Assembly: GCA_028280285.1 (NCBI GenBank) | Contig: JANQMA010000050.1 | Span: 38,055-102,054, forward strand | Direction of reading: 5' to 3' | DNA: 64,000 nucleotides | Origin: Candidatus Omnitrophota bacterium | GTDB lineage: Bacteria > Omnitrophota > Gorgyraeia > Zapsychrales > Zapsychraceae | Shown here: positions 1-47,485 of the stretch, one piece after another | Layout: every line of letters starts with the position of its first letter | How positions within the stretch are numbered: the stretch's first letter is position 1 | The notes under the pieces: model-generated | Seen by the model: only the letters and a program-made list of their open reading frames with translations | Databases searched by the model: none | Told to the model about the DNA's origin: nothing | Program-made: the position numbers and the translations under genes

Positions 1-17
1 GCAATAGCTGGCTATTT

Positions 18-3000
18 ATGGTCAAAATGCTTTTGGCCATGACCTATTCGATTGAGGAGGCCCAAGAGGAAAGAAAAAATAGCCTTTCTGGTTTGGATAA
101 AACACGGTGGGAGATGGTGCATTACTTTGCTAAGGCGTTTAAGAATGATGGAGGTCAGTATTATGACGTAGAGGATGTTGTACGTAGCATAGATGGGTTT
201 CACGAGATTGGGCGTCGTAAAGATTTAAGAATGGTATTAAAAAAGCTAACCGATGTGTATTTGCTGGCAGATAAGCTACTCATGTCTAAAAAAAGAGTGT
301 GGAAGGTTGTCAATAAAAATGATCCGCGCTGGCTACGATTACGTAACGGAGAAAAATTTGACTTGTATTATGATGCAAAAAAAATGATAGAAGAAAACCG
401 CGGTGATATCCAGTCTAAGTGGGAGCTTATATTTGCGATGGCTGATGTCATTGATGGTATGACTGAAAAGTCACCAGTTCACCTAGCTAAAATACAAAGT
501 GATATTCAACGGAAGTTATCTAAACCGGTAGCAGAAGATAGCGTAAGAGGAACACTGAGTCTTTTCGAAAATGCGCATATCATTAAAATACATAAAAAAT
601 CAGGTTCTGAGGTGTATAGTCGTCGAAGAGGTAAGAAGCAGCAAAACAGGCTTAATGCGCTTATGGATAAAAAAAGGTTTATTTTTGTTACGGAGCGCTC
701 AGCGCTCTCTGATTATTTTAATGCGCCATTGCGTGATATTTTAAACCTTGATTCGGCTTCTTTGCAAGAGCACTTTGAAACCATTGAAGATGAAGCTGAA
801 AAGATGCATGGACAAATGCAGGGGTGGATCAATAACATGGCTTCAGAACATAAGAGACAATATTATCCAGAGGCCTATACTGAGTTTGCCACTGTGATTA
901 AAACGTTTTGGGATGATGATGAGATTGTAATCCAGCTGCAATTTGTCACAGGGGGTTTAAAAAGCGTCGCGCAACGACAGTTAATACAAACGACTTATAA
1001 AGAGTTTGTCAACCGGTTGAGCAAAAATACGTATTTCGATCAGTTTACGGTTGAAACAAAACCGCCTAAAGATGTCACCAAAGGCAGCGCCACGATACGT
1101 ATTTTACAAAAAGCAACAGTCAAAACAAACCGATCGCAGCGGGCCGTTTTGAAATGGCTTTTTAAACAATTGGATATTGGCAAAATTGATCAGGGGCGGC
1201 AGGGTATTGCTTTTAATCCTATCGGCATAGCTCACAAGATTGATGGGATTAGTAATGATGGCGATGTTGAAGAGACAATTAATCATTTTGAGTTATCTGT
1301 AGGCGATCCAAAAGAACTACTCAGTTCAATAAAATACAGCATTGATGTTGCTAAATTGTGGTTTACTGTAAAGGCAGCAAAAATTATTGATGCATCCGAT
1401 CCGAACTATACATTGTTTGATAAATTTTTAGATGATATAAAACCCCAAACACCCAAAAAGAAATCATTTGCTAAATCCCCGGCCCCGGCTCGATCTAAAA
1501 AGAAGGGGGGCGATTCGTTTCAATACATTAGAGATTCGATTAAAAGAGTACAACGTAAGAAATTACTGGGAGACAAATCAGACTCTGCTTCATTCACGTC
1601 CCTTCCTGCTGTCCACCGGTTGGCGGTGGTGGCATGGATGTTGCTGCAGTCATATAAAGATCACAAAAAAGATATTGATCCTCTAGAAATTATCAAAGAT
1701 ATTATGTTAAATAATGATCAAGAAGATGGCGACATGGTTGTTCAAAAGGTTATAGGGGATCTTGATTTTTTTGTTACAGAAGGTGTTTTAAATTCTTCGA
1801 TGGATATTTTGGAAGATAGAAGGCTATATTCTTTGAAGTCCGGCCGAGGAGAGCAGCTCAGTTCTTTTGTGGCCAAAAGTCTGGACTTTCATATTGCGGA
1901 GATCCTTCTTCAAAGCAAGGATGATGTTGTTGATTTAACCACTTTAGAAGGACGCTTGCAGGACTTCCCCGGTATGAGGCTTATCATGGCTATGGGTGAG
2001 TATGATGGCTATTTTAACTATTTAAGAAGGCATTTTAAGATGCATGAGGTAGAAGGCCATATGACAGAGAGTCATGAGGTCGATATGTGGGAGCTTTTGC
2101 CCGAAGGAAAACATTATTTTGAACAGCACCTGCAAAATGTGTTGGGAGAAATGTTTTTTGATTCATTTGATCCGGTTAAAGCTCTGACGGGCTTTAAGTC
2201 CGATTTGCTTAAACCGGATGATACAAAAGAATTGTTGGAGGTATGGCAGGACAACCGCCCTGAATATTTTCGTTTTCGAAGTAAAAAAAAGGTGTTAAAG
2301 TTTTTTTTGGCATTAATTGCAGAACATAGTTTTTTCAACCAAGAATATTCCATGGAGATTCACGGAAATATTATTCGCTTTAAAGTTATTCGAGCTAAAA
2401 ATAATGACTTTCTGGGGGCAAAATTCAATATTGTGTATGAGGATTCACTGCGGCCGTCTCGGGCCAAAACATATCTCAGCCATTTTGAAGTCATTGAAAA
2501 AAATGAAAAAGCATACGATGGGCAATTGCATATTTTATTAAAAGCTTTGCTTGGTGTTGAGAGGGAAGTTGAACGAAAAGCGGACAATAAGCGTATTCAG
2601 GATGATTTGGAAAAGGTTGTTGACTGGGAAAAAATTGATTCAGGAAAGCAGCATGTTATGGCATTGGCAGGGTATATTGCGCAGGCGTCTTTTATTCCTC
2701 CAGTCGATTCTCCCCAAAAAATATTGGTGTTTAATGAATTTCAAGTTGTTGAGTTGATGGAAAAACACTTTGGAAAGGAGGTATCGGAGCCATATATTCA
2801 GAATTTACTTGCTGATTTTCATGCAAAAGGTGTTGCACAGAAATTACCAAAGAAAGAGGGCAGCTTAAATCAACAGTGGGGTCTTGAACCACATGTGAAA
2901 TATCTGTTGAGTCAAATTAATGAAGGTCGAACAGATTTATATGAATTGAAGAACTCGGCGTCCGTCGATCTTGCCGCGATATTAAACAGGGAGACTGTCG

Positions 3001-6000
3001 CTCAGAAAATTTTGGAAATAGAGCCGTCAATCATCGGGAAAATTGAGTTTACAGCAAGGCAGTTGGCGCTTAAGTTCGGCGATACTACTGATGGTTCAGA
3101 ATTAGAAGCTATTCTTAAGCAATTAGAAGACGAGCGCATCCTTCGTGTATATACGATGTCCGGCAGCACGATCAAGAAGTGGACGGTTGTCGATAAAGAC
3201 AATCTCGCACGTATCGCTGAAAGTGGCTCGATAGAAGAAAAACGCAATACTTTGCTGAATAAATGGGAGACTTTGTTTTTGATGGCTAAAATAGTTTATA
3301 GAAGAATTCAACCGGGTCAGCGGTTTAATGCGGGTTTTTTAACGGCAGAAATTAATGCGATAATTAATAATCTGGAAGCAATACAAAAAAAGCCAATACA
3401 CGAAAAACAGGTGCGTCAAGCCGCAGATCTTTTAGAAGCCGCGCGGATGTTTAAAAAGCAGTCGACCGCTTTAGGTGATTTTTGGATTCGTGCAGACGAA
3501 ATAGACAATGACATCGATGTAGAATATCAGCTGCACAGGCTTTCTTTAAAACATCAGGATGAATTAGAAAAAAGACGCCTCCAGCTGCAGGAGCCACTGG
3601 AAAAATATTTTCGCGCAGGTATCGACGCCATTTTTCACGATGAAGGGACTAAGGCTGATTCCGCGATGCTGAATAATGGCAGCGCGGCACAGACAGATTT
3701 TAAGTCCTTAAATACAGTATTAGATAGAGAAGATTTTCATATTATCGAAGAGATTATTTTAAATATGCCTTCATCTGCCTCTGCTATCGGTGTAGATTCT
3801 CCTTATAAGCAAGAAAAATCGCTCCATTTTCAAACTAAACGCCACGATGAAAATGCGCTCTTTATTTCTAACGACCTATTTGCGATAGCTCTGGATAATC
3901 ATGAACCGACATTTAAAATTTTTATCGGCTATCCATTGAGTAAAGATAAAGACCCGAATCAGAAGGAGCAAAAGCAAATATTCAATAGTGTCGCAGGTTA
4001 TTTAATTAAAGAATTTAACAGTAAATCCGGTTTGTCTAAAAAATATAATTTTCAGAAGCAAAAGTATAGATTTGACAGTGATCCTATTGTGCTGTTGCAA
4101 CTAGATTCTTCTCCATTATTAAGCGAAACAGTTAACAGTACAAATAATAAACATATAAAGACCGAAATTGATGGCATTGCGTTAACATTGAAAGACTTAG
4201 AAGATTGGGCCAAGGCTAATCCAAACAAGGTGTGGCGGGGGCCTAAAAGAGAAATCGAAAAAATATTTAATAGTTCAAATTTCGTTGCCTCTCGTGTATT
4301 AGAAAATAATAATATTAAGGTTTTTGGCGCAACGACTCCTCAAACACAACGCCTGTATGACCGTCTAGTTGAGGAATATGACATAATTGCACAATTGGAT
4401 AGGGAGAGTTTAAAAAAAATAGCGAAAGAAATGGATCTACAAATTCAAACGATTTTTGATAACCTTAAAAAATTTAAAGAAGTGTTAGATGAAGGATATT
4501 CATTAGAGCCGATAGCTGATCCGATAGAATTTGTCAGAGCAAAAAGAAAAAATGATTTATTTTATAAACAACCTTTAAACGATGATTGGGCTAAAAATGA
4601 TTCTCCTGAAAAGGCTATGGAAGGGCACGCGGCTAATAATAATTCATATACTATCAACGATAAATGGGAGCTCATTTTTGCAATAGCTGAAGTCGTTGAT
4701 AATATAGAACCAGAGCAGGTGTTTAGCGCGTACTATGTATACGATGAGATTAATCAATTGTTGCCGAAACAAGTGTCGGGTGATGAGTTAAACGCGGCAT
4801 TGGATCTTTTTGGTTTTGGTTCTCTGATTAAATTACAAAATTTCGGAGATAACAACAGACTATGGATGCGACGTACAGGTTCGCTACAAAGTGATAGAAT
4901 AAATAGCTTGCGCGTGAAAGAAAAAATCTTATTTGCTAAACCAAATTTTATGAAAAGTTATTTTCGTGCAGAATCAAACGAAATTATGAGTCAAATCGAT
5001 CTTGCCGCGATGAGTGATCCTGTTTTTCTTGATATTGCCAAGCAACTTGGAAAAATAATTGACGGCCATGAAAAACTTGATTTTTTAAGAGGAGATACGG
5101 AACGCCTTGGATCGGTGTATGCCTTTAATCAAGGCGGAGAGGTTCAACTGGCATTTAATTATAATGAGGGTGAACCTATTATTGAAATTAATTTTGTTGG
5201 AGCAAGACGTGAAAAAACCAGGCACAAATATAATAATGGTCAAAAAAGAGAACTGTTTGATCAAACCCAAAGTATACTTTTTGAAAAGCTTAACTTCTTC
5301 GTAGCAGCCGAAAAATATTTGTTGAATAAAGTGCCATATGAAGGCGTATCAGGTGCGTGGCGGACTATGTTTAAATTAAATCGTTTTGGTTCTGATAAAA
5401 AACAACAAGATGCCGCTACAATGAATGATGAGGTTGCAACCCCGCAATCTCCTTTCGCTTCAGAGTTTTTGCAAGATGAAAAGACCAGACGGAAGGTTTT
5501 GCATGCGTGGCAGCGATTACAGGTCTTGGCCAAGCAGATTCAAACTAAGATTAATGAAACAGGTATTTTTGAAGAAGTTGAAAATTTAGCCAATCGACTT
5601 GCCAAAAATGACAGTGAATTATCAGAGGATACGTATCAACGCACTGTTATGCAAATACAAAACGACGGAAAGGAAGTAAGTGAGTTTATTAGCCAATGGT
5701 TTAAGCAAGAGTCCATGGAAGATTATATCTATTTGAAAGAAGGTAGCGATTTAAGATGGAAAGTTGCGTATGATTTTATAGATAAATGGAATAAAATTCT
5801 AAATTCCATTTTTATCGATATTTATTTTTTAAGATTTTATTTGCAAAGAAATGATTTGTCGCAATTTAAAGAAACGGCAACGCATTTGAAAAATGATTTA
5901 GATGAGGGCAAGGATTATGCTTATAAGAAAATGTTAGAAAATATTTTACGCCCGACAGAAGAAAACATTTTTAAAGATCGTAATGGTGCTGAACAATTAG

Positions 6001-6947
6001 GAGAACCGGAAGAAATTTATCAATATTTTCTTGCGCCCGCCATGCGCGCTTTTCCTGAAGAGATAAAGGCCTTATCGAAAAAGGATACTCCGGATTCCGC
6101 CGCGATGAGTGATGGGGAGTTTAGGGAGAAAATGGGTCAGGCTTATCAGAGTGCTGTAAAAATATTAGCTGTGTTAAGAGACGCAACAAATCAGTTAAAA
6201 GAGGAGTTACCAAATACTGACCCAAAAATACATAAAGAAAAAATCAAAAGTTATGTATCGGGGATACATCATATGCTTATACATTATCTTGTAGGAGCAA
6301 GAGGAGCATTTTTGTTTTATCAGAATACACGAAATATAAATGGTAAAATTACGGCAGATCAATATGATAACTTAGTAAAATACTGGGAACTATTTAAAGG
6401 TCAATTTGATCAAATGGATCGTTTAAATGTTGATGAAAAACAACGGAAAAAAGAGGCGACAATAATTTTAAATAGTTTGGAGTTAAAGATTGAAAATCAG
6501 GAAGACTATTCTCTGGATAATTATAGATTTATGAAATTTTTAGTATGGGGAAAGGGATGGGGCAAATATTATAGTTGGATCAAAGATTTTCAATCAGAGA
6601 TTAACGATGACGTTGAGAAAATAGACGGTTTACTTAAGGAAGTCGAAAATAATTTTGTTGATTTGGCCGCGATGACAGATGTCGGGGGGATTGACTTAAA
6701 TCCTGAGCTTCTTAATATGGATATTGAATATGATGAAGCCGGTGTGCCGCTTCCGGCTGTGCAGCAACCGGTGATTAATATGGATATTGAAGGCTTCACA
6801 CCGGTGATTATTAATGTAACCCCAATCCCGAGTCTGCCGCTTATGCTGGGACTTGATGTTGATCAGAATGATGAGTCTAAACCTGACAGGCAGCAAGTGG
6901 CGTGGGAGTATGGGGAGCTTGGCTATGCCTTGCGTGAGCTTGATTAA
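18..6947 (+). CDS. Giant hypothetical protein (2309 aa or more). The frame is open back to position 3, so the gene may be 5'-truncated by the window edge. Charged, Cys-poor, with internal duplications.
   Basis: Uninterrupted 6.9 kb ORF. No signal peptide or TM segment is visible in the N-terminal part present in the window. Duplicated motif KWELIFA(M/I)A(D/E)V(I/V)D at nt ~418-459 and ~4660-4701, also similar at nucleotide level. Recurring DLAAM(S/T)D motif at nt ~2951, ~4996, ~6103 and ~6664. Tandem NMDIE units at the C-terminus. No catalytic motif recognised. Confidence 0.6.
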   Translation: MVKMLLAMTYSIEEAQEERKNSLSGLDKTRWEMVHYFAKAFKNDGGQYYDVEDVVRSIDGFHEIGRRKDLRMVLKKLTDVYLLADKLLMSKKRVWKVVNKNDPRWLRLRNGEKFDLYYDAKKMIEENRGDIQSKWELIFAMADVIDGMTEKSPVHLAKIQSDIQRKLSKPVAEDSVRGTLSLFENAHIIKIHKKSGSEVYSRRRGKKQQNRLNALMDKKRFIFVTERSALSDYFNAPLRDILNLDSASLQEHFETIEDEAEKMHGQMQGWINNMASEHKRQYYPEAYTEFATVIKTFWDDDEIVIQLQFVTGGLKSVAQRQLIQTTYKEFVNRLSKNTYFDQFTVETKPPKDVTKGSATIRILQKATVKTNRSQRAVLKWLFKQLDIGKIDQGRQGIAFNPIGIAHKIDGISNDGDVEETINHFELSVGDPKELLSSIKYSIDVAKLWFTVKAAKIIDASDPNYTLFDKFLDDIKPQTPKKKSFAKSPAPARSKKKGGDSFQYIRDSIKRVQRKKLLGDKSDSASFTSLPAVHRLAVVAWMLLQSYKDHKKDIDPLEIIKDIMLNNDQEDGDMVVQKVIGDLDFFVTEGVLNSSMDILEDRRLYSLKSGRGEQLSSFVAKSLDFHIAEILLQSKDDVVDLTTLEGRLQDFPGMRLIMAMGEYDGYFNYLRRHFKMHEVEGHMTESHEVDMWELLPEGKHYFEQHLQNVLGEMFFDSFDPVKALTGFKSDLLKPDDTKELLEVWQDNRPEYFRFRSKKKVLKFFLALIAEHSFFNQEYSMEIHGNIIRFKVIRAKNNDFLGAKFNIVYEDSLRPSRAKTYLSHFEVIEKNEKAYDGQLHILLKALLGVEREVERKADNKRIQDDLEKVVDWEKIDSGKQHVMALAGYIAQASFIPPVDSPQKILVFNEFQVVELMEKHFGKEVSEPYIQNLLADFHAKGVAQKLPKKEGSLNQQWGLEPHVKYLLSQINEGRTDLYELKNSASVDLAAILNRETVAQKILEIEPSIIGKIEFTARQLALKFGDTTDGSELEAILKQLEDERILRVYTMSGSTIKKWTVVDKDNLARIAESGSIEEKRNTLLNKWETLFLMAKIVYRRIQPGQRFNAGFLTAEINAIINNLEAIQKKPIHEKQVRQAADLLEAARMFKKQSTALGDFWIRADEIDNDIDVEYQLHRLSLKHQDELEKRRLQLQEPLEKYFRAGIDAIFHDEGTKADSAMLNNGSAAQTDFKSLNTVLDREDFHIIEEIILNMPSSASAIGVDSPYKQEKSLHFQTKRHDENALFISNDLFAIALDNHEPTFKIFIGYPLSKDKDPNQKEQKQIFNSVAGYLIKEFNSKSGLSKKYNFQKQKYRFDSDPIVLLQLDSSPLLSETVNSTNNKHIKTEIDGIALTLKDLEDWAKANPNKVWRGPKREIEKIFNSSNFVASRVLENNNIKVFGATTPQTQRLYDRLVEEYDIIAQLDRESLKKIAKEMDLQIQTIFDNLKKFKEVLDEGYSLEPIADPIEFVRAKRKNDLFYKQPLNDDWAKNDSPEKAMEGHAANNNSYTINDKWELIFAIAEVVDNIEPEQVFSAYYVYDEINQLLPKQVSGDELNAALDLFGFGSLIKLQNFGDNNRLWMRRTGSLQSDRINSLRVKEKILFAKPNFMKSYFRAESNEIMSQIDLAAMSDPVFLDIAKQLGKIIDGHEKLDFLRGDTERLGSVYAFNQGGEVQLAFNYNEGEPIIEINFVGARREKTRHKYNNGQKRELFDQTQSILFEKLNFFVAAEKYLLNKVPYEGVSGAWRTMFKLNRFGSDKKQQDAATMNDEVATPQSPFASEFLQDEKTRRKVLHAWQRLQVLAKQIQTKINETGIFEEVENLANRLAKNDSELSEDTYQRTVMQIQNDGKEVSEFISQWFKQESMEDYIYLKEGSDLRWKVAYDFIDKWNKILNSIFIDIYFLRFYLQRNDLSQFKETATHLKNDLDEGKDYAYKKMLENILRPTEENIFKDRNGAEQLGEPEEIYQYFLAPAMRAFPEEIKALSKKDTPDSAAMSDGEFREKMGQAYQSAVKILAVLRDATNQLKEELPNTDPKIHKEKIKSYVSGIHHMLIHYLVGARGAFLFYQNTRNINGKITADQYDNLVKYWELFKGQFDQMDRLNVDEKQRKKEATIILNSLELKIENQEDYSLDNYRFMKFLVWGKGWGKYYSWIKDFQSEINDDVEKIDGLLKEVENNFVDLAAMTDVGGIDLNPELLNMDIEYDEAGVPLPAVQQPVINMDIEGFTPVIINVTPIPSLPLMLGLDVDQNDESKPDRQQVAWEYGELGYALRELD

Positions 6948-7072: not shown

Positions 7073-7825
7073 ATGAAATACAAAAGCCTTATCTTTACCC
7101 TATTTTTACTCCTTTCAACTACAGCTTCCGCCGGGATTATCGAAATCGAACGCGCCTTCATGGAGCAGGATTATCCGCGGGCCGAGGTATTGGCCGAAGA
7201 AGGCCTTAAGCGGCACAAGGGTGGTGATGTAAGTCTTTTTCAGTATTATCTGGGCTTAAGCCACATCCGTTTAGGTAAATATGGCCTGGCTGCATCGGCT
7301 TTGAAAGACTTAGTTAATGATCAAACCATTCCGACCGATCTGCGTGATAAAGCACACCTGGCACTGATCGATGCCTATTATCTAGCCGGCAAATATGATC
7401 GGGCTGCCGTTCTCGCCGATCAGTTTAAGACAGCGAGTTATAATTCTGATTATTTGAGCCTGCTTTATTTAAAGTCGGCACGTATTAAGTTTAAACAGGC
7501 CGCGTGGACTGATGCGAGGCTCAAACTGCGTACGATCATTAATCAATATCCGGAAAGCTTTGATGTCTATCTGGCGGACCAATTTTTACAAGAAAAGATG
7601 TTCTTCTCGGTTCAGGTCGGCTCTTTTCGCGATCGTGCCCGGGCTAAGGATTTGGTATCACAATTAAAAGCAGAAGGCAAAACCGCCTATATTTTTGAAG
7701 TGAAAGATTATTCGGGACGAAAATTTTATCGTGTGCGTGTCGGTCAGGTGTCATTTCTCGATCAGGCCAAAAACCTGCAGGAAAAATTGGCTAAGCAGGG
7801 GTATCCAACAAGAATCTACCCTTAG
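7073..7825 (+). CDS. Secreted TPR-like plus C-terminal SPOR (peptidoglycan-binding) domain protein
   Basis: Signal peptide MKYKSLIFTLFLLLSTTASAG. The C-terminal ~75 aa (FSVQVGSF...YRVRVGQ...) matches the SPOR fold consensus. Confidence 0.6.
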   Translation: MKYKSLIFTLFLLLSTTASAGIIEIERAFMEQDYPRAEVLAEEGLKRHKGGDVSLFQYYLGLSHIRLGKYGLAASALKDLVNDQTIPTDLRDKAHLALIDAYYLAGKYDRAAVLADQFKTASYNSDYLSLLYLKSARIKFKQAAWTDARLKLRTIINQYPESFDVYLADQFLQEKMFFSVQVGSFRDRARAKDLVSQLKAEGKTAYIFEVKDYSGRKFYRVRVGQVSFLDQAKNLQEKLAKQGYPTRIYP

Positions 7826-11118: not shown

Positions 11119-11790
11119 ATGGCGATTATTATTATCTTTATCATGGCATGTATTATAGGAATTATTTTTCTCAATTTGCAGACCACCACAGATCCGCAGA
11201 AAACGCGCAACGATTATCTCAAAGAAATTATACGTATCATGGAGGGTCGGAGTATGACCATACCGGCTTATGAAGATTCGTATAAAATTTTATTCACCTT
11301 TAAAAGCGAACAGTTTGAATACGATGATATCATTTCAAAGATCGGTAACAAGATTATTCACAGAGGTTATCTGCGCGTTAAAACTTTAAGCAATTTATCT
11401 TTAAGCTTTAATGAAAAAACAAGGGAGAAGTTTTTTAATAAGGATGTTGTTTCGCAAATCATTAAACCAGGTGAGCTATCGGGCGGACGTGTAAAGCTGA
11501 ATATTCCTAAGGCACTGCGTGAGTTTGATATTGTGACCAATAGCATTTTTGCGGCCAATGCTTTTTTTCAGGACAAAAAGGTGATCAACATTCTGCGTGA
11601 GTTTAAGAATATTGATACGCGCGGATGGAAGCATATGGCTATCCGTATAAAAAATGGTGAAGTTGTCTTGGAGTTTAATCCCCAAACGGGATTTAAACCG
11701 AATTTGGCCACACTGCGTAGTGACCCGCATATTATAGAAGATAATGCCAAAAAGCTTCTTGTCCTTGTGGCCCGTCTTAATACCTCGTAA
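11119..11790 (+). CDS. Hypothetical membrane-anchored protein
   Basis: ORF with an N-terminal TM helix; no recognisable family. Confidence 0.4.
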   Translation: MAIIIIFIMACIIGIIFLNLQTTTDPQKTRNDYLKEIIRIMEGRSMTIPAYEDSYKILFTFKSEQFEYDDIISKIGNKIIHRGYLRVKTLSNLSLSFNEKTREKFFNKDVVSQIIKPGELSGGRVKLNIPKALREFDIVTNSIFAANAFFQDKKVINILREFKNIDTRGWKHMAIRIKNGEVVLEFNPQTGFKPNLATLRSDPHIIEDNAKKLLVLVARLNTS

Positions 11791-11959: not shown

Positions 11960-12700
11960 ATGATGACTCCAAAGAAAACCGATATCCGTGCCAGAAAAGA
12001 GCGGGTTTTAGGTATAACTGTTAGTCAGTATATTAAAAATGTTTCACCGGTCAGTTCTGCTTTTTTGGTTAATGAATATTTTGCCGATTTAAGCTCGGCC
12101 ACAATCCGTAATATTTTAAGTGAGCTCGAACAAGAAGGATATTTAACGCATCCGCATACATCAGCCGGACGCATTCCCACCCAAAAGGGTTACCGCTATT
12201 ATGTCGATAACCTTGTTGATGAAATTCAACTTTTGGAAGAGGAGAAAGAACGCATCCGCCAAGATTATTTAAAAGAAAAAAGAGAATTAGATGCCCTTCT
12301 TAAAAAAGCATCACAAGCCATTTCGCAGGTAACCCATTATACGGGTATTGTTTCTGTGGATGGATTTGAAGATAGATTGTATTTGAGTGGAACACATCAT
12401 ATTGTGGAATACCCTGATTATCAGGATATTCAAAAAATTCGCTCTATATTAGTTGCTTTGGAAGAGAAGGAACAATTGTATAAGGTCATCAGTAAAGAGC
12501 TTGATAAACGCATTGAGGTTTTTATCGGCAGTGAAATCGAGTGCTCTGATATTGATGCCTGTTCGCTTGTGGTTTCTTCATATAAAACCCGTAAGGGACC
12601 GACAGGCCGTATTGCTGTATTGGGACCGACAAGCATGGACTATCAAAAAGTATTTTCTACCGTCGATTATATGACGCGTTTAATGGAAGAAATGATTTAA
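11960..12700 (+). CDS. hrcA: Heat-inducible transcription repressor HrcA
   Basis: N-terminal winged helix with SSATIRN...LE..GYL.HPHTSAGRIPT..GYRYYVD; first gene of a grpE-dnaK-dnaJ operon; CIRCE upstream. Confidence 0.85.
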   Translation: MMTPKKTDIRARKERVLGITVSQYIKNVSPVSSAFLVNEYFADLSSATIRNILSELEQEGYLTHPHTSAGRIPTQKGYRYYVDNLVDEIQLLEEEKERIRQDYLKEKRELDALLKKASQAISQVTHYTGIVSVDGFEDRLYLSGTHHIVEYPDYQDIQKIRSILVALEEKEQLYKVISKELDKRIEVFIGSEIECSDIDACSLVVSSYKTRKGPTGRIAVLGPTSMDYQKVFSTVDYMTRLMEEMI

Positions 12701-19412: not shown

Positions 19413-20516
19413 ATGGCACAAATTACACTTAAGAATGTTTCTAAAATTTACCGCGGCAATGATTGTGCAGTTGATAATATTGATTTGTCTGTCGAGGATA
19501 AAGAGTTTATGGTCCTTGTCGGTCCTTCCGGTTGCGGTAAGTCGACGACTTTACGTATGATTGCCGGTTTAGAAGATATTTCTAAGGGAAAGGCTTTTAT
19601 CGGGGACAGATTGGTTAATGATGTTCCGGCTAAAGACCGTGATATCGCGATGGTCTTTCAAAATTATGCCCTTTATCCACATATGACTGTATATGAAAAT
19701 ATGTCGTTCGGTCTTAAATTGCGTAAGTATCCCAAGGATGAGATTTTAAAACGTGTTAATGAGGCGGCTGAGATTTTAGGTATTAAACATCTTCTCGAAA
19801 GGCGTCCACGCCAATTATCCGGGGGAGAAAGACAGCGCGTTGCTTTAGGCCGTGCGATCGTGCGCAAACCTCAGGTGTTTTTATTCGATGAGCCTTTAAG
19901 TAATTTGGATGCTAAGTTACGTGTGCAAATGCGCACCGAAATCCATAAGCTGCGCACGCGTTTGCAAACAACGTTTGTTTATGTAACCCATGATCAAACC
20001 GAAGCGTTGACTTTGGGCGACCGCATTGTCGTTATGCGTGGCGGAAAAATTCAGCAGTGTGCTGATCCGATGACGATTTATGATAAACCGGCTAATAAGT
20101 TTGTCGCCAGCTTTATCGGTTCACCACCAATTAATTTAATGGATGGTAAAATCATCAAGCGTGATAAAAAATATTACTTTGATGAAGGTAAGTTTCAAGT
20201 TAGACTTGTAGAAGAGATGTATAAAGACATCGAGCCTTATGAAGGCAAAGAGGTTACCTTCGGTATTCGTGCCGAGGATGTTTATGATAAATTATTTGTT
20301 TCTGAAGCGTCACCGGATAATACCATCCGTGCTGTCTGTGAGGTTGTGGAGCCTTTAGGATCTGAAGTTTATTTGTATTTGAATACAGGCAAAAATACTT
20401 TTATCGCACGTGTTGGTGCACATAACCGTCCTGATGTGAATCGGGAAATGGATCTTGTATTTGATATGAGTAAGGTGCACTTCTTTGACCGAGAAACAGA
20501 AAACACAATTGTCTAA
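19413..20516 (+). CDS. Sugar ABC transporter ATP-binding protein (MalK/UgpC/MsmX type), orphan
   Basis: Walker A GPSGCGKST, LSGGERQRVALGRA, and a C-terminal TOBE-like regulatory domain. No permease or binding-protein gene adjacent. Confidence 0.8.
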   Translation: MAQITLKNVSKIYRGNDCAVDNIDLSVEDKEFMVLVGPSGCGKSTTLRMIAGLEDISKGKAFIGDRLVNDVPAKDRDIAMVFQNYALYPHMTVYENMSFGLKLRKYPKDEILKRVNEAAEILGIKHLLERRPRQLSGGERQRVALGRAIVRKPQVFLFDEPLSNLDAKLRVQMRTEIHKLRTRLQTTFVYVTHDQTEALTLGDRIVVMRGGKIQQCADPMTIYDKPANKFVASFIGSPPINLMDGKIIKRDKKYYFDEGKFQVRLVEEMYKDIEPYEGKEVTFGIRAEDVYDKLFVSEASPDNTIRAVCEVVEPLGSEVYLYLNTGKNTFIARVGAHNRPDVNREMDLVFDMSKVHFFDRETENTIV

Positions 20517-21780
20517 AAGCTGCATGTTTATGGTAATTCTTTTAGGGTTGCCGCTCATCGGGTTTTTTATCTTCGCGTTTTTTTATGACCAACAGTTTTT
20601 TCTTTATCTTTCTTTTTGCCTTGCCGCCTGCACTATTTATCTTATTCCTGTACGTATGAAGCTTGTCAGTAAATATGCCGGTGATGAGCTGCGCGCCCGC
20701 GATGTGGAAGAACAAGTTAATTTACTTGAAGCCGACATGAAGGGTGAGCAGACCATCACAGAATCTTTTAAAAAGAAGATTGTTAATTCATCTCAACTTA
20801 AAGGGCTGACCGAACGTTTAAGTATGTGTCTGTATCTGGAGGATACTTCCAAAGTTTTATCGGCCGAGGTTAATAAATTGTTCGGTGATGAAGATACGAC
20901 GGTGATCCTTTATTTATTCCATTCCAAAACAGGGGAACTCGGCCTTTCTTCGTCACAAAAAGGACAAATGCAAGTTAACATCAAGTCTAAACAAGGGGAT
21001 ATTTATGATCACTGGCTTGTTAAAACAATGCAGCCGTTGTCGATTGAAGATACGCATAGTGACTTTCGATTTGATACGGATAAGGTAGAAACAGAAGAGG
21101 CGCGGGCTATCAGGTCGCTTATAAGCACGCCACTTATGATCGGTAAAAAAGCTTTGGGTATTTTACGTGTTGATAGCACCAAAGAAAATAAATTTGGAAC
21201 CGAGGATTTACGTTTCTTGCAGACCATAGGTGATTTAGGGGCAGTAGCAATCGAAAATGCACAACTTTATGAACGTGTCGAGAAACTTGCTATACGCGAT
21301 AGTTTAACGGGGATTTATCTGCGTAAATATTTGTTCGACCGTATTCCGCAAGAAATTACGCGTCATAGAAAACGAAAAGCAAGCCTTGCTTTTATGATGA
21401 TTGATCTTGATAAATTTAAAAAATACAATGATGATTATGGGCATACCGCCGGAGATATTGTGCTGCGGACCATAGGTATGCTGCTTGCTGATTTTTTTGA
21501 TGAACCGGGGAATTTGGTGTGCCGTTATGGTGGAGAAGAATTTTGTGTCCTTTTGCCGGAATGTTCTAAGGAAAAAGCGATCGAGTTGGGGGAAGCCATA
21601 CGTAAAAAAATATCGATGCAGGAGATTATTCTCCGCCGGAAAAAAACCAGTATTACTATTTCTGTCGGTATAGCTGGATTCCCTGAGGATGGGCAGGATC
21701 AGGATGAATTAATACGCAAGGCTGACGAGGCTTTATACAAAGCTAAATCGTCAGGCCGCAACAAGGTGTGTGCGGCATAA
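20485..21780 (+). CDS. Membrane-anchored GAF-GGDEF diguanylate cyclase
   Basis: Two N-terminal TM helices, a GAF-like middle domain, and RYGGEEFCVLLP (GGEEF active site). Confidence 0.75.
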   Translation: MTEKQKTQLSKSCMFMVILLGLPLIGFFIFAFFYDQQFFLYLSFCLAACTIYLIPVRMKLVSKYAGDELRARDVEEQVNLLEADMKGEQTITESFKKKIVNSSQLKGLTERLSMCLYLEDTSKVLSAEVNKLFGDEDTTVILYLFHSKTGELGLSSSQKGQMQVNIKSKQGDIYDHWLVKTMQPLSIEDTHSDFRFDTDKVETEEARAIRSLISTPLMIGKKALGILRVDSTKENKFGTEDLRFLQTIGDLGAVAIENAQLYERVEKLAIRDSLTGIYLRKYLFDRIPQEITRHRKRKASLAFMMIDLDKFKKYNDDYGHTAGDIVLRTIGMLLADFFDEPGNLVCRYGGEEFCVLLPECSKEKAIELGEAIRKKISMQEIILRRKKTSITISVGIAGFPEDGQDQDELIRKADEALYKAKSSGRNKVCAA

Positions 21781-21796
21781 AAAATTTTATTAAATT

Positions 21797-22804
21797 ATGG
21801 CTCCAGTCTTAATCGGATATTTTCTTTTATTTTTGTTTTGTGTGAACAAGATTGTCGAGTGTTTGTATAAAGAGTCGGAGCAGTATGTTGTCGATTTGAA
21901 TACAAAAAAAGAAGGATTACTTAAGAAGAAACATCATTTGATAGAGCAAAAAAGAATCGTCGAAAATGAATCCAAAGAAATCTTCACCCTTTTTGAAATC
22001 ACCAAAGATATAACCAAAAGTTTCAATGAAAAAGATGCATTTGAAATTTTTAAAGTAAAATTGGCTGAGCATGTCAAGTTTGATAAATGTGAACTCTTGG
22101 ATCCTCTGGTTGAGAATATAAAAGAATTAAGAAAGGTTAAAGAGTATTTTGTATTTACACTGCAAGGTAAAAAACGTAAGATTGGCTATATTTCTGTGCT
22201 TGGTTTGCCGGAATTAGATAAAGAAAAATTTATGATCATGGCCCATCAGTTTGCACTGGCTCTTCGGCGTGTTAAGTTACATCAAGAGGTTGAACAAACG
22301 GCTATTACCGATGGTTTGACAGAGATGTATACACGTGGGTATACTTTCAGCCGATTTGAAGAAGAGTTCAGCCGCGCAAAATCCAAAAAAATAAGTTTGT
22401 CTTTTCTTATGGTCGATGTCGATCATTTTAAGATTTTGAATGATCAATACGGACATTTAACAGGTGATAAGATTTTGCGTAAAATTGCGAAAATTATTAA
22501 AGAAAATATCCGTGAAATTGATATTGGTGGACGCTATGGTGGAGAAGAGTTTTGTGTCATTCTGCCCGATACCGATAATAAAGGTGCGCGGTATGCCGCT
22601 GAACGTATCAGAAAAGCGGCCGAGGAAACCCAAATCCGCGCCTATGATGCGGTTGTTAATATTACGGTCAGTATAGGTGTTGCCACCTACCCTAAAAATG
22701 GTTCATCTGTGACCGAGATTGTTGATAAAGCGGACTGGGCTCTTTACAGGGCCAAGAAGCGCGGGCGAAACAAAATTTGTGTCTTCGGCGTCTACGATGA
22801 ATAG
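21797..22804 (+). CDS. GGDEF diguanylate cyclase
   Basis: RYGGEEFCVILPDT active site; N-terminal TM helix. Confidence 0.75.
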   Translation: MAPVLIGYFLLFLFCVNKIVECLYKESEQYVVDLNTKKEGLLKKKHHLIEQKRIVENESKEIFTLFEITKDITKSFNEKDAFEIFKVKLAEHVKFDKCELLDPLVENIKELRKVKEYFVFTLQGKKRKIGYISVLGLPELDKEKFMIMAHQFALALRRVKLHQEVEQTAITDGLTEMYTRGYTFSRFEEEFSRAKSKKISLSFLMVDVDHFKILNDQYGHLTGDKILRKIAKIIKENIREIDIGGRYGGEEFCVILPDTDNKGARYAAERIRKAAEETQIRAYDAVVNITVSIGVATYPKNGSSVTEIVDKADWALYRAKKRGRNKICVFGVYDE

Positions 22805-42392: not shown

Positions 42393-44089
42393 ACAAAACA
42401 ATCGCTTTAGTTGTCGTCGGATTGCCGCTGGATAAGCATTTCGACTATGCTGTGCCCGCTACCATGCAGGCTCAAGTCGAAATCGGCTCACGCGTGCGCA
42501 TTGTCTTTGCCCGTCGTAAAACAGTAGGATATGTCATCGGTTTTCAATCTAAATCAAGCTTTTCTAAAATCAGTTCTATTTTGGAAGTGATTGACGATAA
42601 ACCGGTTTTGGACGACAATGATCTTGCCCTGGCACGCCAGCTGCGTGATTATTACGGTTGTTCCTTAGGGGAGGCCATCGAGGCAGGACTTTCGCCGCAT
42701 TTAAAAAGGGGGCGTAAAGGTCTTATTTACACGCGGGACAAAGTCAGCACAAAAAAACCAAAGCATGCGCTTATTTACGGTCTTAATGACAGTGATAAAA
42801 AGTGGAAAAGCTTTAATGATGTATTAACTAAAAAAATTAAAGCCGGCCAAAGTGTCCTTATTTTGCTTCCCGAAAAATTTTTGATTGAACAAACGGTTGG
42901 ACGTATTGATGCCGATCTTACTCAATTCATTGTCTCTATGGATCGTAAACTGAAGTCCGCCGAGCTTGATGCGTACGCCGAGCGTCTAAGCGGCAAAAAA
43001 CCAATAATACTTATTGGTATGCGTTCATGTGTCTTTAGCCGGATTAACAATTTAGGACTTATTGTTGTGCTTGATGAAGCCAGTAGTTCATATAAGGAAG
43101 AACAGTCGCCGCATTATCATGCGCGCGAAGTTGTCTTTATGCGTTCAGAACAAGAGTCGATCGATACGCTTTGGATTAGTTTGCTTCCGAGTGTGGAGTT
43201 GTGGTATTGGGCGCAAGAGCGCGACTGGAAAATCACACATATCGACGACGGTGTGCTTGGACAAGTCAAAGTGATCGATATGATGAATTATAATCCGGAA
43301 AAGCGTTTGTCGCTCTCGGCGCCGGTGCAAAATGATATTAAAAAGACATTAGAGACAAACGGTCAGATAGCGATTATTGTTAATCAACGTGATTTTGTTC
43401 CCTTTAAAGAAAGTGAAGAGGTCCCGGCAAAAAGAAGCAAGGTTGAGCGTTTGACCTATTTGGTTGAATGTATGAATGAAGGGGTGAAGGTGAGTTATTT
43501 TGGGCCTGGGCAAAGGTGTTCGAAAAAGGCACATGTTATTATTGCGACGCCAACAGTGCTTAAAGAAAAATGGTTTAGTCCGGATTTAATTGTTATTGCT
43601 AATTTCGATACCATGGTCAGCCCTTTTGATTTTCGCGCGTCTCATAAAGCCTTTCAGTTTGTTACGCAGCTCAAGTTATTAAATGTAAAGGTTGTCGTTC
43701 AGACATTTATGGCGGATCATTTTATTGTTAAGGCTCTTAGGGCGAAGTTCTATCAGAACTATTATCAGGAAGAACTTAAGCATCGGTTTGAGCTCGGTTA
43801 TCCGCCGTTTAATCATATTATTACCTATTCTTCCCGGGCGAATGATGAAGAAAAGCTTAACGGGTATATGAGCGATGTTTACGCGGCGCTCTACCGGCAG
43901 AAGGCAAATGATTTGGAGATGATCGAGCCTTTTGCGGATCATAGTGCGCGGTTGAAAGAGGATTTTCGCTACACTATAATGCTTAAGTCAAAAGAGGTCC
44001 GACCGACGGTGGATTTTTTGAAGAAAGAGATTAAGCAGGTGAAAAAGCCGGCGCGGTTTAAAGCGACGATTGATGTGGATCCGTATTAA
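42389..44089 (+). CDS. priA: PriA homolog with degenerate Walker A and loss of the Cys-rich zinc-binding region (probably ATPase/helicase-dead)
   Basis: Collinear with PriA (3'BD N-terminus, LIVVLDEASSSYKEE Walker B region, C-terminal VDVDPY). The GxxGSGKT position reads GLNDSDKK. No CxxC pairs where PriA has four. Length 566 aa versus ~730. Confidence 0.6.
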   Translation: MNKTIALVVVGLPLDKHFDYAVPATMQAQVEIGSRVRIVFARRKTVGYVIGFQSKSSFSKISSILEVIDDKPVLDDNDLALARQLRDYYGCSLGEAIEAGLSPHLKRGRKGLIYTRDKVSTKKPKHALIYGLNDSDKKWKSFNDVLTKKIKAGQSVLILLPEKFLIEQTVGRIDADLTQFIVSMDRKLKSAELDAYAERLSGKKPIILIGMRSCVFSRINNLGLIVVLDEASSSYKEEQSPHYHAREVVFMRSEQESIDTLWISLLPSVELWYWAQERDWKITHIDDGVLGQVKVIDMMNYNPEKRLSLSAPVQNDIKKTLETNGQIAIIVNQRDFVPFKESEEVPAKRSKVERLTYLVECMNEGVKVSYFGPGQRCSKKAHVIIATPTVLKEKWFSPDLIVIANFDTMVSPFDFRASHKAFQFVTQLKLLNVKVVVQTFMADHFIVKALRAKFYQNYYQEELKHRFELGYPPFNHIITYSSRANDEEKLNGYMSDVYAALYRQKANDLEMIEPFADHSARLKEDFRYTIMLKSKEVRPTVDFLKKEIKQVKKPARFKATIDVDPY

Positions 44090-44094
44090 TAATT

Positions 44095-44352
44095 AAAAAG
44101 TGAGAAATAAAAAGTAAAAAAGAAAATTTAGAATTAAAATAAATTAAAAAATAAAAATGATAATTGGTAGTTAGTAATTTGTAATTGGTATTTAAATAAT
44201 AAAAATCAAGACCTTTGAAAATAACATTATATATTTTTACTTTTTTTAAGACCTTTTCTGTTAAAACCAAATACTAATTACCAATTACTAAATACGATTT
44301 TAAATTTTTAATTTATTTAACTTTTTCATTTTCTTTTTTATTTTTTACTTTT
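44095..44352. repeat. Large AT-rich heptad palindrome (~260 bp)
   Basis: aattggtagttagtaatttgtaattggtatt mirrored by aatactaattaccaattactaaatac; the outer A/T arms are also mirrored. Confidence 0.6.
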
Positions 44353-44368
44353 CAATTCTCAATTAACT

Positions 44369-45304
44369 ATGAAGATTATATTTTTCGGTTCAGATGACTT
44401 TGCAGCCGCACACCTAAAGGCGCTTTTGGCGTCGGATAATGATGTGGTGGCCGTTGTCACTCAGCCCGACCGGCCGAAAGGGCGGGGGATGAAGGTGGTT
44501 GAGTCACCCATTAAACAGATCGGCGTGAAACACACGCTCGATGTGCTTCAGCCTACCGCGTTTGATGCCGCAGTTATTGATCAGCTTAAAAGCTATGACG
44601 CCGATTATTTTGTGGTGATTGCTTATGGGCGGATATTGCCCAAGGAAGTTTTGGATATTCCTTTGAAGGCGCCGATTAATGTGCATGGTTCGCTTTTGCC
44701 GAAGTTGCGTGGCGCCGCGCCAATTAACTGGGCGGTAATCAATGGCGATAAGGTGACCGGTTTAACGGTCATGCTTATGAACGAAAGAATGGATGCGGGG
44801 GATATCCTGGGCCAACATTCGATTACGATTGGCGCGGAAGAAACGGCAGAGGAGGTAAGAGAGCGGATGATGACCGAAGGCCCGGCGTTTTTGGTTGAAA
44901 CGCTTGCCAAATTTACCGATGGTTCGATTACACCGGTTGCGCAAGATGAAAAGCAAGTCACCTATGCGGCAAAGCTTGATAAATCGCTTGGCGTGATCGA
45001 CTGGCAAAAGAGCGCCAAAGAAATTAATAATCTTGTACGCGGTCTAACACCATGGCCTAAAGCGTACACTTCTTATCAAGGCAAGCAGCTTAAGATTTTA
45101 AAAACCTCGGTGGTTGAATATTGCGATAAAGAGGCGTGCGGGACGGTCATCGAAGTGCAAAAAGAAGGATTTCTCGTGCAGACGGGCAAGAACGCGCTTC
45201 TCGTTGAGTGCGTCCATCTTCAAGACGGCAAGCCTATGGATGCCGCCAGCTTCCTGCGCGGCCATGCGCTTGAGACTGGCTTTGTGTTTGAGGGAAAAAA
45301 TTAA
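44369..45304 (+). CDS. fmt: Methionyl-tRNA formyltransferase
   Basis: KIIFFGSDDFAAAHLKAL...VVTQPDRPKGRG and SLLP motif. Confidence 0.9.
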   Translation: MKIIFFGSDDFAAAHLKALLASDNDVVAVVTQPDRPKGRGMKVVESPIKQIGVKHTLDVLQPTAFDAAVIDQLKSYDADYFVVIAYGRILPKEVLDIPLKAPINVHGSLLPKLRGAAPINWAVINGDKVTGLTVMLMNERMDAGDILGQHSITIGAEETAEEVRERMMTEGPAFLVETLAKFTDGSITPVAQDEKQVTYAAKLDKSLGVIDWQKSAKEINNLVRGLTPWPKAYTSYQGKQLKILKTSVVEYCDKEACGTVIEVQKEGFLVQTGKNALLVECVHLQDGKPMDAASFLRGHALETGFVFEGKN

Positions 45305-45307
45305 TTA

Positions 45308-45331
45308 TTCGCCTCGAGGCGGGTTGTATTT
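45308..45331 (+). terminator. Putative terminator after fmt
   Basis: Hairpin CGCCTCGAGGCG followed by GGTTGTATTT. Confidence 0.4.
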
Positions 45332-45340
45332 AGAAAAACG

Positions 45341-45376
45341 TAAAAAAATAATGTGGGGACGCCATTTATGGCGTCC
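45341..45376 (-). terminator. Rho-independent terminator for the minus-strand island genes
   Basis: Hairpin GGACGCCATAAATGGCGTCC followed by CCACATTATTTTTTTA on the minus strand. Confidence 0.55.
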
Positions 45377-45458
45377 TGAAATGTTGATAATTTAGGATTC
45401 CATAAATGAAACCCCTACGGCCAACTCGAACCGATAAATATCAAAATTCTACTACCTA

Positions 45459-45878
45459 TTAATCCCGGACATCTGTATAAATGAAATCATTATAAGAAAG
45501 GTTTGTTTTTCCAAGCAAATCTTTTCTCATAGCTTTCACAATGTTACCTATTGCCTCTCTACCTTTCTCAGTATCTGGTTTTGTTCCTTTTGAATCGATA
45601 ACTAATTTAACCATATAATTTATGGCCTTAACGACATCATCGGAACAATACAGCCAAGATCTGTATTGTTCATCAAAAAATTTTCTTTTTAAATCGCTCG
45701 ATGCTGTTTTACCAATAAAAGATTTAAGCAAAACAAGCAAATTCGCATATTTTTCTTCCTTAAAACGTAACATCGCTTCGCTTCTTTTTGTCTTTATTGT
45801 AAAATGATATGTTACATAAGAACTTACCAGCCCTGCAACCAAAGGTCCTAAAAATAAAAAAATATCTCCCAAAATCAT
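45459..45878 (-). CDS. Hypothetical membrane-anchored protein
   Basis: ORF with an N-terminal TM helix; co-oriented with the KilA-N gene. Confidence 0.4.
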   Translation of the reverse strand: MILGDIFLFLGPLVAGLVSSYVTYHFTIKTKRSEAMLRFKEEKYANLLVLLKSFIGKTASSDLKRKFFDEQYRSWLYCSDDVVKAINYMVKLVIDSKGTKPDTEKGREAIGNIVKAMRKDLLGKTNLSYNDFIYTDVRD

Positions 45879-45903
45879 TTCTCCTAATTGAAAAGCTGTA
45901 AAT

Positions 45904-46722: not shown

Positions 46723-46754
46723 ATGTAAATTTTCTATTTTTGCAAAAAATTTGG

Positions 46755-47138
46755 CTATTCTTCTAACTTTCCCAACAACTCACTAAAAGCAGGGTAGTAG
46801 AGGTCGAGGATATGGACATGGATTTGTTTGATGGCTTCCTGACTGTAGATGTGGACGGTTTTGTTGCGGTCATCGATCATCTGTAAGAAAAGATTTTCAT
46901 CTTCAATGATTCCATCGTTAAAAGCTTCTTTAAAGACGTCTTTGGGATATCTTAGGTCTTTGCCTTTTTCCTTATAATAGAGCTTTAATGTTTTCCAGCA
47001 CAGCTCGTAGGTAAACTCGAACCGCTTGATTGCGCTGTCGCGTAAGATATCGGTCAAAGGCTCCTGCTCAATGACTTCTTTGAGCCGGTCGTAGGCCGCT
47101 TGCCATTTTTCATACGATATTTCGAATTCATTTTTCAT
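46755..47138 (-). CDS. HEPN-domain nucleotidyltransferase substrate-binding protein (HI0074 family), putative toxin/antitoxin partner
   Basis: HI0074-like fold signature FEFTYELCWKTLKLY...NKTVHIY. Confidence 0.65.
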   Translation of the reverse strand: MKNEFEISYEKWQAAYDRLKEVIEQEPLTDILRDSAIKRFEFTYELCWKTLKLYYKEKGKDLRYPKDVFKEAFNDGIIEDENLFLQMIDDRNKTVHIYSQEAIKQIHVHILDLYYPAFSELLGKLEE

Positions 47139-47424: not shown

Positions 47425-47435
47425 TGTAAAATAGT

Positions 47436-47481: not shown

Positions 47482-47485
47482 TATT

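Follow-up and report, generated by a model that had tools for sequence, protein, structure and literature searches.

A 64,000-nucleotide stretch of the genome of a Candidatus Omnitrophota bacterium (contig JANQMA010000050.1, positions 38,055 to 102,054 of the forward strand; this whole stretch is called the window here) begins inside a giant protein-coding gene, and the locus raises the question of what kind of protein a gene of this size, apparently without relatives, encodes. We find that the product, which we refer to as P0001, is, as judged from its sequence, a very long new member of a large, paralogous, sequence-defined and undescribed protein family. We also consider it probable that P0001 is exported by the Sec route and that its two ends, which enclose a cargo, are a sorting or anchoring module common to the family.

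Within the window, frame 3 of the plus strand is open from nt 3 to a stop codon at 6945–6947, giving 2,314 codons, or 2,309 when counted from the first ATG (nt 18) of this open reading frame (ORF); frame 1 over the same DNA is full of stops. A first-pass annotation, made by a model from the letters alone, had reported that the 2,309-codon ORF reached the window edge and that the true gene might be larger. This is indeed the case: a word-indexed search of 5.8 billion proteins returned P0001, an NCBI-deposited protein of 3,418 amino acids encoded on a 102,527-bp contig, as the sole match to the window protein, with 100% identity. The gene is 10.3 kb long and the window begins at P0001 residue 1105, the first 1,104 codons lying upstream. 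These upstream codons, recovered through P0001, encode a signal peptide (MLRRLCAAITVSIFTFTTIFSAPAFA) at their start, a conserved N-terminal domain (NTD) and the first part of a variable middle region. The part of the gene contained in the window is:

1..6947, plus strand: C-terminal 2,314 codons of the 3,418-codon giant gene (frame 3)

The product had been described as highly charged and nearly free of cysteine, and the composition bears this out: D, E, K and R together make up 29.7% of the residues of the window protein, the net charge is −39, and there is not one cysteine in 2,314 amino acids (the single cysteine of P0001 is residue 6). At the 1.06% cysteine rate of the other window genes, the probability of finding none over this length is 2e-11. 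The annotation had also seen no signal peptide or transmembrane segment. By hydrophobicity this is correct for the window part, whose only hydrophobic peak is the proline-rich stretch VIINVTPIPSLPLMLGL in the C-terminal tail, but it does not hold for the complete protein: the N-terminus of P0001, MLRRLCAAITVSIFTFTTIFSAPAFA↓QG, is by its sequence a canonical Sec-type signal peptide, and it is not visible in the window because the window cuts the gene. The statement that no enzymatic motif can be recognised stands for the window part, which matched no Pfam, NCBIfam, PHROGs or PADLOC model and no PDB sequence; Pfam searches with ten protein tiles at E ≤ 10 gave sub-threshold noise only, and neither PHROGs nor PADLOC pointed to a phage or defence-system relationship.

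The two ends of P0001 place it in a family. A search with its N-terminal 1,104 residues found at least 4,042 matching proteins (a lower bound, since 8,000 candidates were scored), with 43–60% identity and with the matches covering only residues ~1–350. Every match bearing an organism name was labelled Candidatus Omnitrophica or Omnitrophota, the only other named matches being from hydrothermal vent metagenome, and the family appears to be restricted to the Omnitrophota. A profile of the NTD built from 108 members matches P0001 residues 3–347, upstream of the window, with 539.6 bits (E = 1.8e-166), and a profile of a C-terminal domain (CTD) built from 84 other members matches amino acids 2222–2293 of the window protein with 94.8 bits (E = 4e-29; 92.6 bits on P0001). 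With filters off, the profiles find a single NTD and a single CTD in P0001, and they find no other copy of either in the 64-kb window. The end of the gene is laid out as follows:

6666..6881, plus strand: family CTD of ~70 amino acids, GGIDLNPELLNMDIEYDEAGVPLPAVQQPVINMDIEGFTPVIINVTPIPSLPLMLG, placed by the profile, with the two NMDIE units and the proline-rich hydrophobic stretch inside it
6882..6944, plus strand: acidic variable extension after the CTD, LDVDQNDESKPDRQQVAWEYGELGYALRELD

Both tandem NMDIE units that had been noticed at the C-terminus are real (nt 6714–6728 and 6777–6791), and since they lie in GGIDLNPELLNMDIEYDEAGVPLPAVQQPVINMDIEGFTPVIINVTPIPSLPLMLG, which is the family tail, they are a C-terminal signature of the family. 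The description of the protein as an orphan therefore fails for its ends, for which profile searches found the clear homology that the annotation had named as a refutation, to a family that is itself uncharacterised, and it survives for the middle, as described below. The word-indexed search with the whole protein missed CTD relatives that do exist; its sensitivity is limited and its negatives are not proof of orphan status.

Alignments of 121, 77 and 40 members all show a conserved head and a conserved tail, with zero conservation across the middle. The NTD is ~320 amino acids long, terminates in IPRKYFSGG and has ~50 invariant positions, including the polar residues N105, S107, E110, D127, D132, K136, D208, E255, R266 and K279. 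The CTD has the consensus GGIDLNPxxLxLQIKRDGxGVPLPxxxQPxxxMxIxGFxPVIINxTPxxNLPxLLG and is followed across the family by an extension of 0–69 residues (median 15). Neither domain is covered by a Pfam or NCBIfam model, a PDB structure or a paper that we found, in keeping with the earlier description of an uncharacterised giant protein of an uncultured lineage. The strings GGIDLN, GGIDFN and PVIINI occur in no paper of the searched literature, the single paper with PVIINV being an unrelated one from engineering.

To see the family in its genomic setting we scanned one genome per species, which gave at least 583 confirmed matches, and examined the best 79 of these loci (best identity 58%; none of them is from the genome that the window was taken from). 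Their metagenome-assembled genomes (MAGs) carry the label Omnitrophota, 'uncultured Planctomycetales', 'Planctomycetales bacterium' or no more than 'bacterium'. The loci contain 116 ORFs with an NTD, 94 with a CTD and 81 with both, and every one of these 81 has exactly one NTD at its start and one CTD at its end, with lengths of 688–3,695 amino acids (median 1,578). Thirteen ORFs carry a CTD without an NTD; twelve of them are explained by a locus edge or a gene-splitting frameshift, and one (in locus L061) is unexplained. In a later tally, 16 of 117 NTD-bearing ORFs were at least 3,000 amino acids long, ten of the 16 running off the fetched DNA, so the size of P0001 is high but not exceptional in its family. 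Tandem arrays of two to five family genes are found in 26 of the 79 loci, and one MAG has at least 13 family copies in four loci.

What lies between the two domains is hypervariable. This region measures from 300 to more than 3,300 amino acids and is unrelated among members, and no Pfam or NCBIfam family occurs in more than two of 40 complete members. The recognisable domains are of a cytoplasmic type: PGI, PGM, UDP-glucose pyrophosphorylase, PEPCK, FBPase, PGK, NDK and NUDIX; alanine and glutamate dehydrogenases, guanylate kinase and dCMP deaminase; and response regulators, DnaJ, and HEAT or TPR repeats. The names that members carry in public databases follow this cargo or chance similarity, examples being 'glucose-6-phosphate isomerase', 'NUDIX domain-containing protein', 'Exonuclease SbcC' and 'phosphoglucomutase'. 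Where reconstructions of Omnitrophota metabolism treat family members as cytoplasmic enzymes they may consequently be wrong, as the members are probably exported.

That prediction is based on their N-termini and their composition. A signal peptide with a basic n-region and a hydrophobic core is present in P0001 and in all 25 of the other family N-termini that we inspected, and in most of them it has an end of the A-x-A↓Q type; of the 25, most end in ..PP..(Y/F)A↓Q. Cysteine accounts for 0.05% of 151,105 cargo and CTD residues in 107 members, whereas it is 1.10% in the 554 ORFs that flank family genes in these loci. This ~20-fold depletion is family-wide and includes the enzyme cargos, and the cysteine-free state of the window protein is thus one instance of it. 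Depletion of cysteine is typical of extracytoplasmic proteins and is marked in passengers that cross the outer membrane unfolded, such as those of autotransporters and type I systems.

For a structural view of the conserved ends we turned to an AlphaFold2 (AF2) model of a short complete member, P0109 (623 amino acids, 77 aligned sequences). Its NTD is predicted as a mixed alpha/beta domain with a predicted local distance difference test score (pLDDT) of ~90, and the CTD reaches a pLDDT of 79–91 despite having little regular secondary structure, the middle being of low confidence. The predicted template modelling score (pTM) of the whole model is 0.64 although 178 residues fall below a pLDDT of 50. 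The confident CTD together with this pTM is a hint that the CTD may pack onto the NTD.

The middle of P0001 contains internal repeats. The annotation had noted an internal duplication at nt ~418 and ~4660; this duplication is real, and a third copy at nt ~3230 had been missed. The repeated unit, repeat B, is ~130 amino acids long and its three copies align pairwise with E values of 2e-12, 6e-5 and 2e-6 at 27–32% identity, copies 1 and 3 over 90 amino acids (32% identity, E = 2.4e-12). In window-protein numbering, KWELIFAMADVIDG stands at amino acid 139 (nt 417) and its counterpart KWELIFAIAEVVDN at amino acid 1554 (nt 4662), and the duplication can also be seen in the DNA (our repeat D2). A different unit, repeat A, is present in two copies at P0001 residues 620–716 and 1032–1123 (E = 4e-9; z = 16.5), the second of which straddles the window start, most of repeat A being upstream. 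Repeats A and B are private to P0001 among 120 family members, and a repeat B profile finds no PDB relative. The repeats in the window are:

3..59, plus strand: tail of repeat A copy 2 (...NSWLFMVKMLLAMT...)
387..785, plus strand: repeat B copy 1, ~133 amino acids, with KWELIFAMADVIDG
3198..3560, plus strand: repeat B copy 2, the shortest and most diverged, with KWETLFLMAKIVY at nt ~3230 (DNA repeat D2)
4623..5030, plus strand: repeat B copy 3, with KWELIFAIAEVVDN, terminating in DLAAMSD

A short motif recurs along the same region. It had been given as DLAAM(S/T)D at nt ~2951, 4996, 6103 and 6664. The second and the last of these sites are as stated (DLAAMSD at 4998 and DLAAMTD at 6660), the third reads DSAAMSD (6093), and the first is the weaker DLAAILN at nt ~2967. 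Two further variants had escaped notice, and the sites with copies at the DNA level are:

3657..3678, plus strand: motif D-S-A-M-L-N-N (DNA repeat D1)
4998..5019, plus strand: motif D-L-A-A-M-S-D
5409..5430, plus strand: motif D-A-A-T-M-N-D, degenerate
6093..6114, plus strand: motif D-S-A-A-M-S-D
6660..6681, plus strand: motif D-L-A-A-M-T-D, immediately before GGIDLNP, as in many family members

The strict form D[SL]AAM[ST] occurs four times in P0001, against 0.0002 expected from shuffled sequences, and the general form D-x-A-A-M is enriched ~3-fold in the middles of other family members (165 observed, 53 expected). Of 178 members, 64 have it in the last 40 amino acids before the CTD, many of them 8–15 amino acids before GGIDLNP, and of 108 members 34 have it within 54 amino acids after the NTD. 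We read D-x-A-A-M as a module-boundary or linker element which, in P0001, marks the seams of duplicated modules; possibly it is a processing site, and it offers a testable handle on the family. The idea that each D-x-A-A-M is followed by a module resembling repeat A was not established, only the two repeat A copies being significant and all others having z ≤ 4.7. An impression, gained on reading the sequence, of winged-helix-like modules in the cargo was likewise dropped, there being neither support from the Pfam tiles nor a PDB relative of repeat B.

Three observations on this region deserve separate mention. Residues 715–745 of P0001, NAVLARTAALTALALMMISPDVSEAQ, resemble a second signal peptide or membrane anchor directly after repeat A copy 1; their core (residues 722–740, upstream of the window) is, besides the proline-rich CTD stretch, the only hydrophobic peak of P0001 after the signal peptide, and it may be what is left of a gene fusion or a genuine transmembrane segment. 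The GC content falls to 34.5% at window positions 4001–6000, as compared with 39–47% in neighbouring 2-kb windows up to nt 16000, and the third copy of repeat B and two or three copies of the motif fall in this low-GC stretch. Finally, a second linker string, (A/S)SSP(I/V), is present in the variable regions of many members (P0002–P0121), often shortly after the NTD, and could be a glycosylation or processing site.

No relative of the middle was detected outside P0001 itself. When 1.84 billion cluster representatives were searched exhaustively by HMMER with window residues 1–1200, P0001 alone was found. Residues 348–3320 of P0001 gave no phmmer match at E ≤ 0.01 in the 79 family loci, and scanning metagenomes with the cargo and, separately, with the repeat B alignment returned no relatives. 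For window residues 1201–2215 the evidence consists of the whole-protein word-indexed search, phmmer in the family loci and the metagenome scan. On these searches the middle of P0001 is taken to be a true sequence orphan. AF2 in single-sequence mode gave a mean pLDDT of 36 for window residues 1–1200, which is unusable, and suggests only that the protein may be mostly helical with some strands.

Taken together, these results lead us to favour, with moderate confidence, the following account of P0001 and its relatives, whose common layout is a Sec-type signal peptide, the ~320-amino-acid NTD, a hypervariable and almost cysteine-free cargo and the ~70-amino-acid CTD. In a cell with two membranes, the signal peptide would bring the protein through the inner one; that the organism has an outer membrane follows from the LptD and the TonB-dependent receptor encoded in the window. 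The NTD and CTD would act as one shared module, as the structure prediction hints, and would either be recognised by a common export or sorting machinery or serve as an envelope anchor. The cargo would be the part that does the work, specific to each lineage, and would end up in the periplasm, at the surface of the cell or beyond it; its lack of cysteine would follow from its export, which may take place in an unfolded state. In P0001 the cargo appears to have been built by internal duplication (repeat A twice, repeat B three times) with D-x-A-A-M linkers joining the pieces. As this cargo contains no recognisable enzyme we read it as binding or structural rather than catalytic, which is the weakest step of the account.

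Several points weigh against this account. In many family members the cargo is a cytoplasmic enzyme or signalling domain of an ordinary type, which is odd for an exported protein. No partner machinery was found beside the family genes in the 79 loci or in the window, whose 64 kb contain no secretion genes. The contact between NTD and CTD is read from model confidence scores alone, and the fold of the P0001 cargo was not recovered (the single-sequence AF2 model having the very low mean pLDDT given above).

The search for a partner gave little to set against this. Clustering of the flanking genes in the 79 loci yielded only generic ABC ATPases, PAS kinases and polytopic membrane-plus-TPR proteins, and an ABC cluster that at first counted ten loci consisted mostly of generic ATPase subunits. 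Full-length ABC exporters are located near family genes in three of the 79 loci (L072, 15011–17275; L024, 5159–7198; L025, 3273–5249), and the one in L072 has a C39-peptidase-like N-terminus with a CGAAC motif. The polytopic membrane proteins with C-terminal TPR (650–805 amino acids if full length) occur near family genes in nine of 79 loci, among them L023, L039, L050, L069 and L076, and in several of these directly beside a family gene. As partners they are suggestive at most, and such a protein could be a modifying enzyme or a coincidence.

Comparison with known systems helps to define what is unusual about the family. Cargo proteins of the type IX secretion system (T9SS) of Bacteroidota combine a Sec signal peptide with a conserved C-terminal domain of ~70–100 amino acids on otherwise unrelated cargo; they may be thousands of residues long, have many paralogues per genome and are restricted to their phylum. 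The Omnitrophota family shares the signal peptide, the conserved C-terminal domain, the long cargos, the paralogues and the apparent restriction to a phylum. It differs in having a conserved NTD of 320 amino acids, which T9SS cargo lacks, and in its phylum, Omnitrophota, with no T9SS genes seen. Membership of P0001 in the T9SS cargo families is not supported: its tail had no Pfam or NCBIfam match at E ≤ 1, and no such domain was among the families listed for 40 members. TpsA proteins of two-partner secretion (TPS), such as FHA, HMW1 and CdiA, have a signal peptide, then a recognition domain of ~250–300 amino acids and then a variable, cysteine-poor passenger of 2,000–5,000 amino acids. Here the likeness is in the order of parts, a signal peptide directly before a conserved N-terminal domain and then a very long, variable, cysteine-poor region. 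However, the NTD matches no TPS (haemagglutination activity) Pfam model and is predicted by AF2 as mixed helix and strand and not as a beta-helix, the family genes have no adjoining gene for TpsB/Omp85, and TpsA proteins have no such conserved C-terminal tail.

Classical autotransporters (type Va) are Sec-exported as well, with markedly cysteine-poor passengers linked to their own outer-membrane translocation, and the family resembles them in its Sec signal and its marked lack of cysteine. The CTD is only ~70 amino acids long, however, the AF2 model contains no beta-barrel of ~250–300 amino acids, and there is no matching Pfam family. A sorting signal of the sortase, exosortase or rhombosortase kind, in which a signature motif precedes a transmembrane helix and a basic cluster at the extreme C-terminus, was also rejected: the hydrophobic stretch of the CTD is proline-rich, is modelled without a helix and is followed by the acidic or polar extension of 0–69 amino acids, and the NCBIfam sorting-domain models do not match the CTD.

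Long unannotated proteins are an open puzzle in the Omnitrophota, a phylum of ultra-small bacteria that occur widely, have not been cultured and are believed to need other cells. Giant genes of the phylum have been treated in three papers (bioRxiv 10.1101/2023.11.21.568195; PMC10066038; bioRxiv 10.64898/2026.06.07.730766). In the passages of these papers that we searched, the giants are encoded by genes of more than 20 kb or are 10,000–147,000 amino acids long, mostly with many transmembrane helices and with C39 peptidase, dockerin/discoidin or SecA-like domains, and some carry puzzling sugar-phosphate enzyme domains (PGI, PGM, FBPase) that are predicted to be extracellular. As far as these passages go, the published giants (Archaeovorin and the dockerin type) and the NTD/CTD family share the phylum, long poorly conserved ORFs, few annotated domains, signal peptides and scattered sugar-phosphate enzyme domains. 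P0001 does not itself fit the published types as described there, its gene measuring 10.3 kb and its sequence having none of those domains and only one internal hydrophobic segment besides the proline-rich stretch; the searched passages contain no description of the NTD/CTD pair.

Four other explanations of the data have to be weighed. The cytoplasmic character of so many cargos (PGI, PGM, UGPase, PEPCK, NUDIX, NDK, PGK, response regulators, DnaJ and guanylate kinase) would be accounted for if the proteins were effectors delivered into a host or prey cell, with NTD and CTD as translocation signals and the cargo acting inside the recipient. Strong exclusion of cysteine is what one would expect of passage through a narrow channel in an unfolded state, many paralogues per genome (13 in four loci of one MAG, for example) fit as well, and Omnitrophota are inferred in PMC10066038 to be host-dependent or predatory. 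Yet in the 79 loci no injection system adjoins the family genes, and the P0001 cargo has no recognisable activity. The known injection systems (types III, IV and VI), moreover, take their substrates from the cytoplasm and not after Sec export, and we judge delivery into another cell to be unlikely on balance. A smaller chance still can be given to the proposal that the proteins never cross the outer membrane and are resident in the periplasm or envelope, where NTD and CTD would tether enzymes and scaffolds to the wall or membrane of an enlarged periplasm. The Sec signal peptide is, after all, the only targeting signal identified, no outer-membrane transporter was found near the genes in the 79 loci, and the many invariant polar residues of the NTD might be those expected of a ligand-binding site. 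The difficulty is that periplasmic proteins are not usually stripped of cysteine, the 20-fold depletion suggesting something more, and that sugar-phosphate and nucleotide enzymes would presumably be without substrates there.

The remaining two explanations have little in their favour. Giant RTX adhesins of the LapA, SiiE and MpIBP type, exported by type I (ABC/TolC-type) systems, are acidic, cysteine-poor proteins in which an N-terminal module and a C-terminal signal surround repeats. P0001 is likewise giant, acidic (net charge −39) and cysteine-free, with conserved ends that bracket a variable, repetitive region, and its C-terminal ~70 amino acids could be imagined as the secretion signal and its NTD as a retention plug; the ABC exporters in three of 79 loci, one of them C39-peptidase-like, might be cited in support. 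This is very improbable all the same, because type I substrates have no Sec-type signal peptide and one is present in P0001 and in every family N-terminus inspected. In addition, no RTX or other calcium-binding repeat family was matched, adjoining genes for ABC, membrane-fusion and TolC components were not found (the full-length exporters just mentioned apart), the ABC matches being mostly generic ATPase subunits, and up to 69 variable amino acids come after the CTD. That P0001 is an artefact, whether a mis-assembly, a pseudogene or a false fusion of neighbouring family genes, is harder still to credit. Family genes do occur in tandem arrays, the segment at residues 722–740 does look like an internal signal peptide, the internal D-x-A-A-M motifs do resemble the junction before the CTD, and the sequence is known from a single contig. 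Against this, the 6.9-kb frame is uninterrupted where the other frames are full of stops, and the 3,418-amino-acid protein is deposited intact, which speaks against the frameshifts or mis-assembly that the annotation had named as a possible refutation. There is also only one NTD and one CTD, neither profile finding an internal copy even with filters off, and the 16 of 117 NTD-bearing ORFs of at least 3,000 amino acids in other genomes have the same layout.

The account of P0001 as an exported cargo between two shared ends can be carried further. It is possible, though we put it forward only tentatively, that the NTD/CTD pair defines an undescribed, phylum-wide sorting or export system which moves hundreds to thousands of different cysteine-free cargos from the cytoplasm to the cell surface or into host or prey cells. 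If so, the exported cargos would include re-tooled glycolytic, nucleotide-sugar and signalling enzymes as well as orphan giants like P0001, the family would be the main interface of Omnitrophota nanobacteria with their hosts, and the giant proteins of the phylum, so far unexplained, could be approached through a defined sequence. Whatever the fate of that proposal, one apparent orphan now belongs to a family of more than 4,000 proteins, whose genes are present many times in a genome and often stand in tandem. Two profiles can list all cargos in any Omnitrophota genome, and a partner of the putative sorting module can be searched for by phylogenetic profiling.

The gene that follows P0001 had been taken for a secreted SPOR/TPR protein, and we found both domains and a signal-peptide-like N-terminus in it; it is not a conserved partner in the 79 loci, in which we saw no conserved synteny with any of the nine window neighbours tested (SPOR/TPR through dnaJ). 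Its position, separate from the feature described here, is:

7073..7825, plus strand: SPOR and TPR protein with a signal-peptide-like N-terminus, identified by domain search

Other parts of the window offer a few minor observations. A 223-amino-acid ORF at 11119–11790 has no Pfam match, and the ORF after it (246 amino acids, 11960–12700), which precedes grpE-dnaK-dnaJ, matches only the C-terminal half of HrcA (profile positions 124–214), its N-terminal DNA-binding part being diverged or missing. A gene for a KilA-N domain protein is found on the minus strand at 45904–46722, within the sole stretch (44000–50000) that has a negative GC skew and a strand switch, the first 45 kb being otherwise entirely on the plus strand; this stretch may be the remnant of a small mobile element. 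Lastly, two adjoining diguanylate cyclase (GGDEF) genes are located at 20485–22804, the first of which also encodes a GAF domain.

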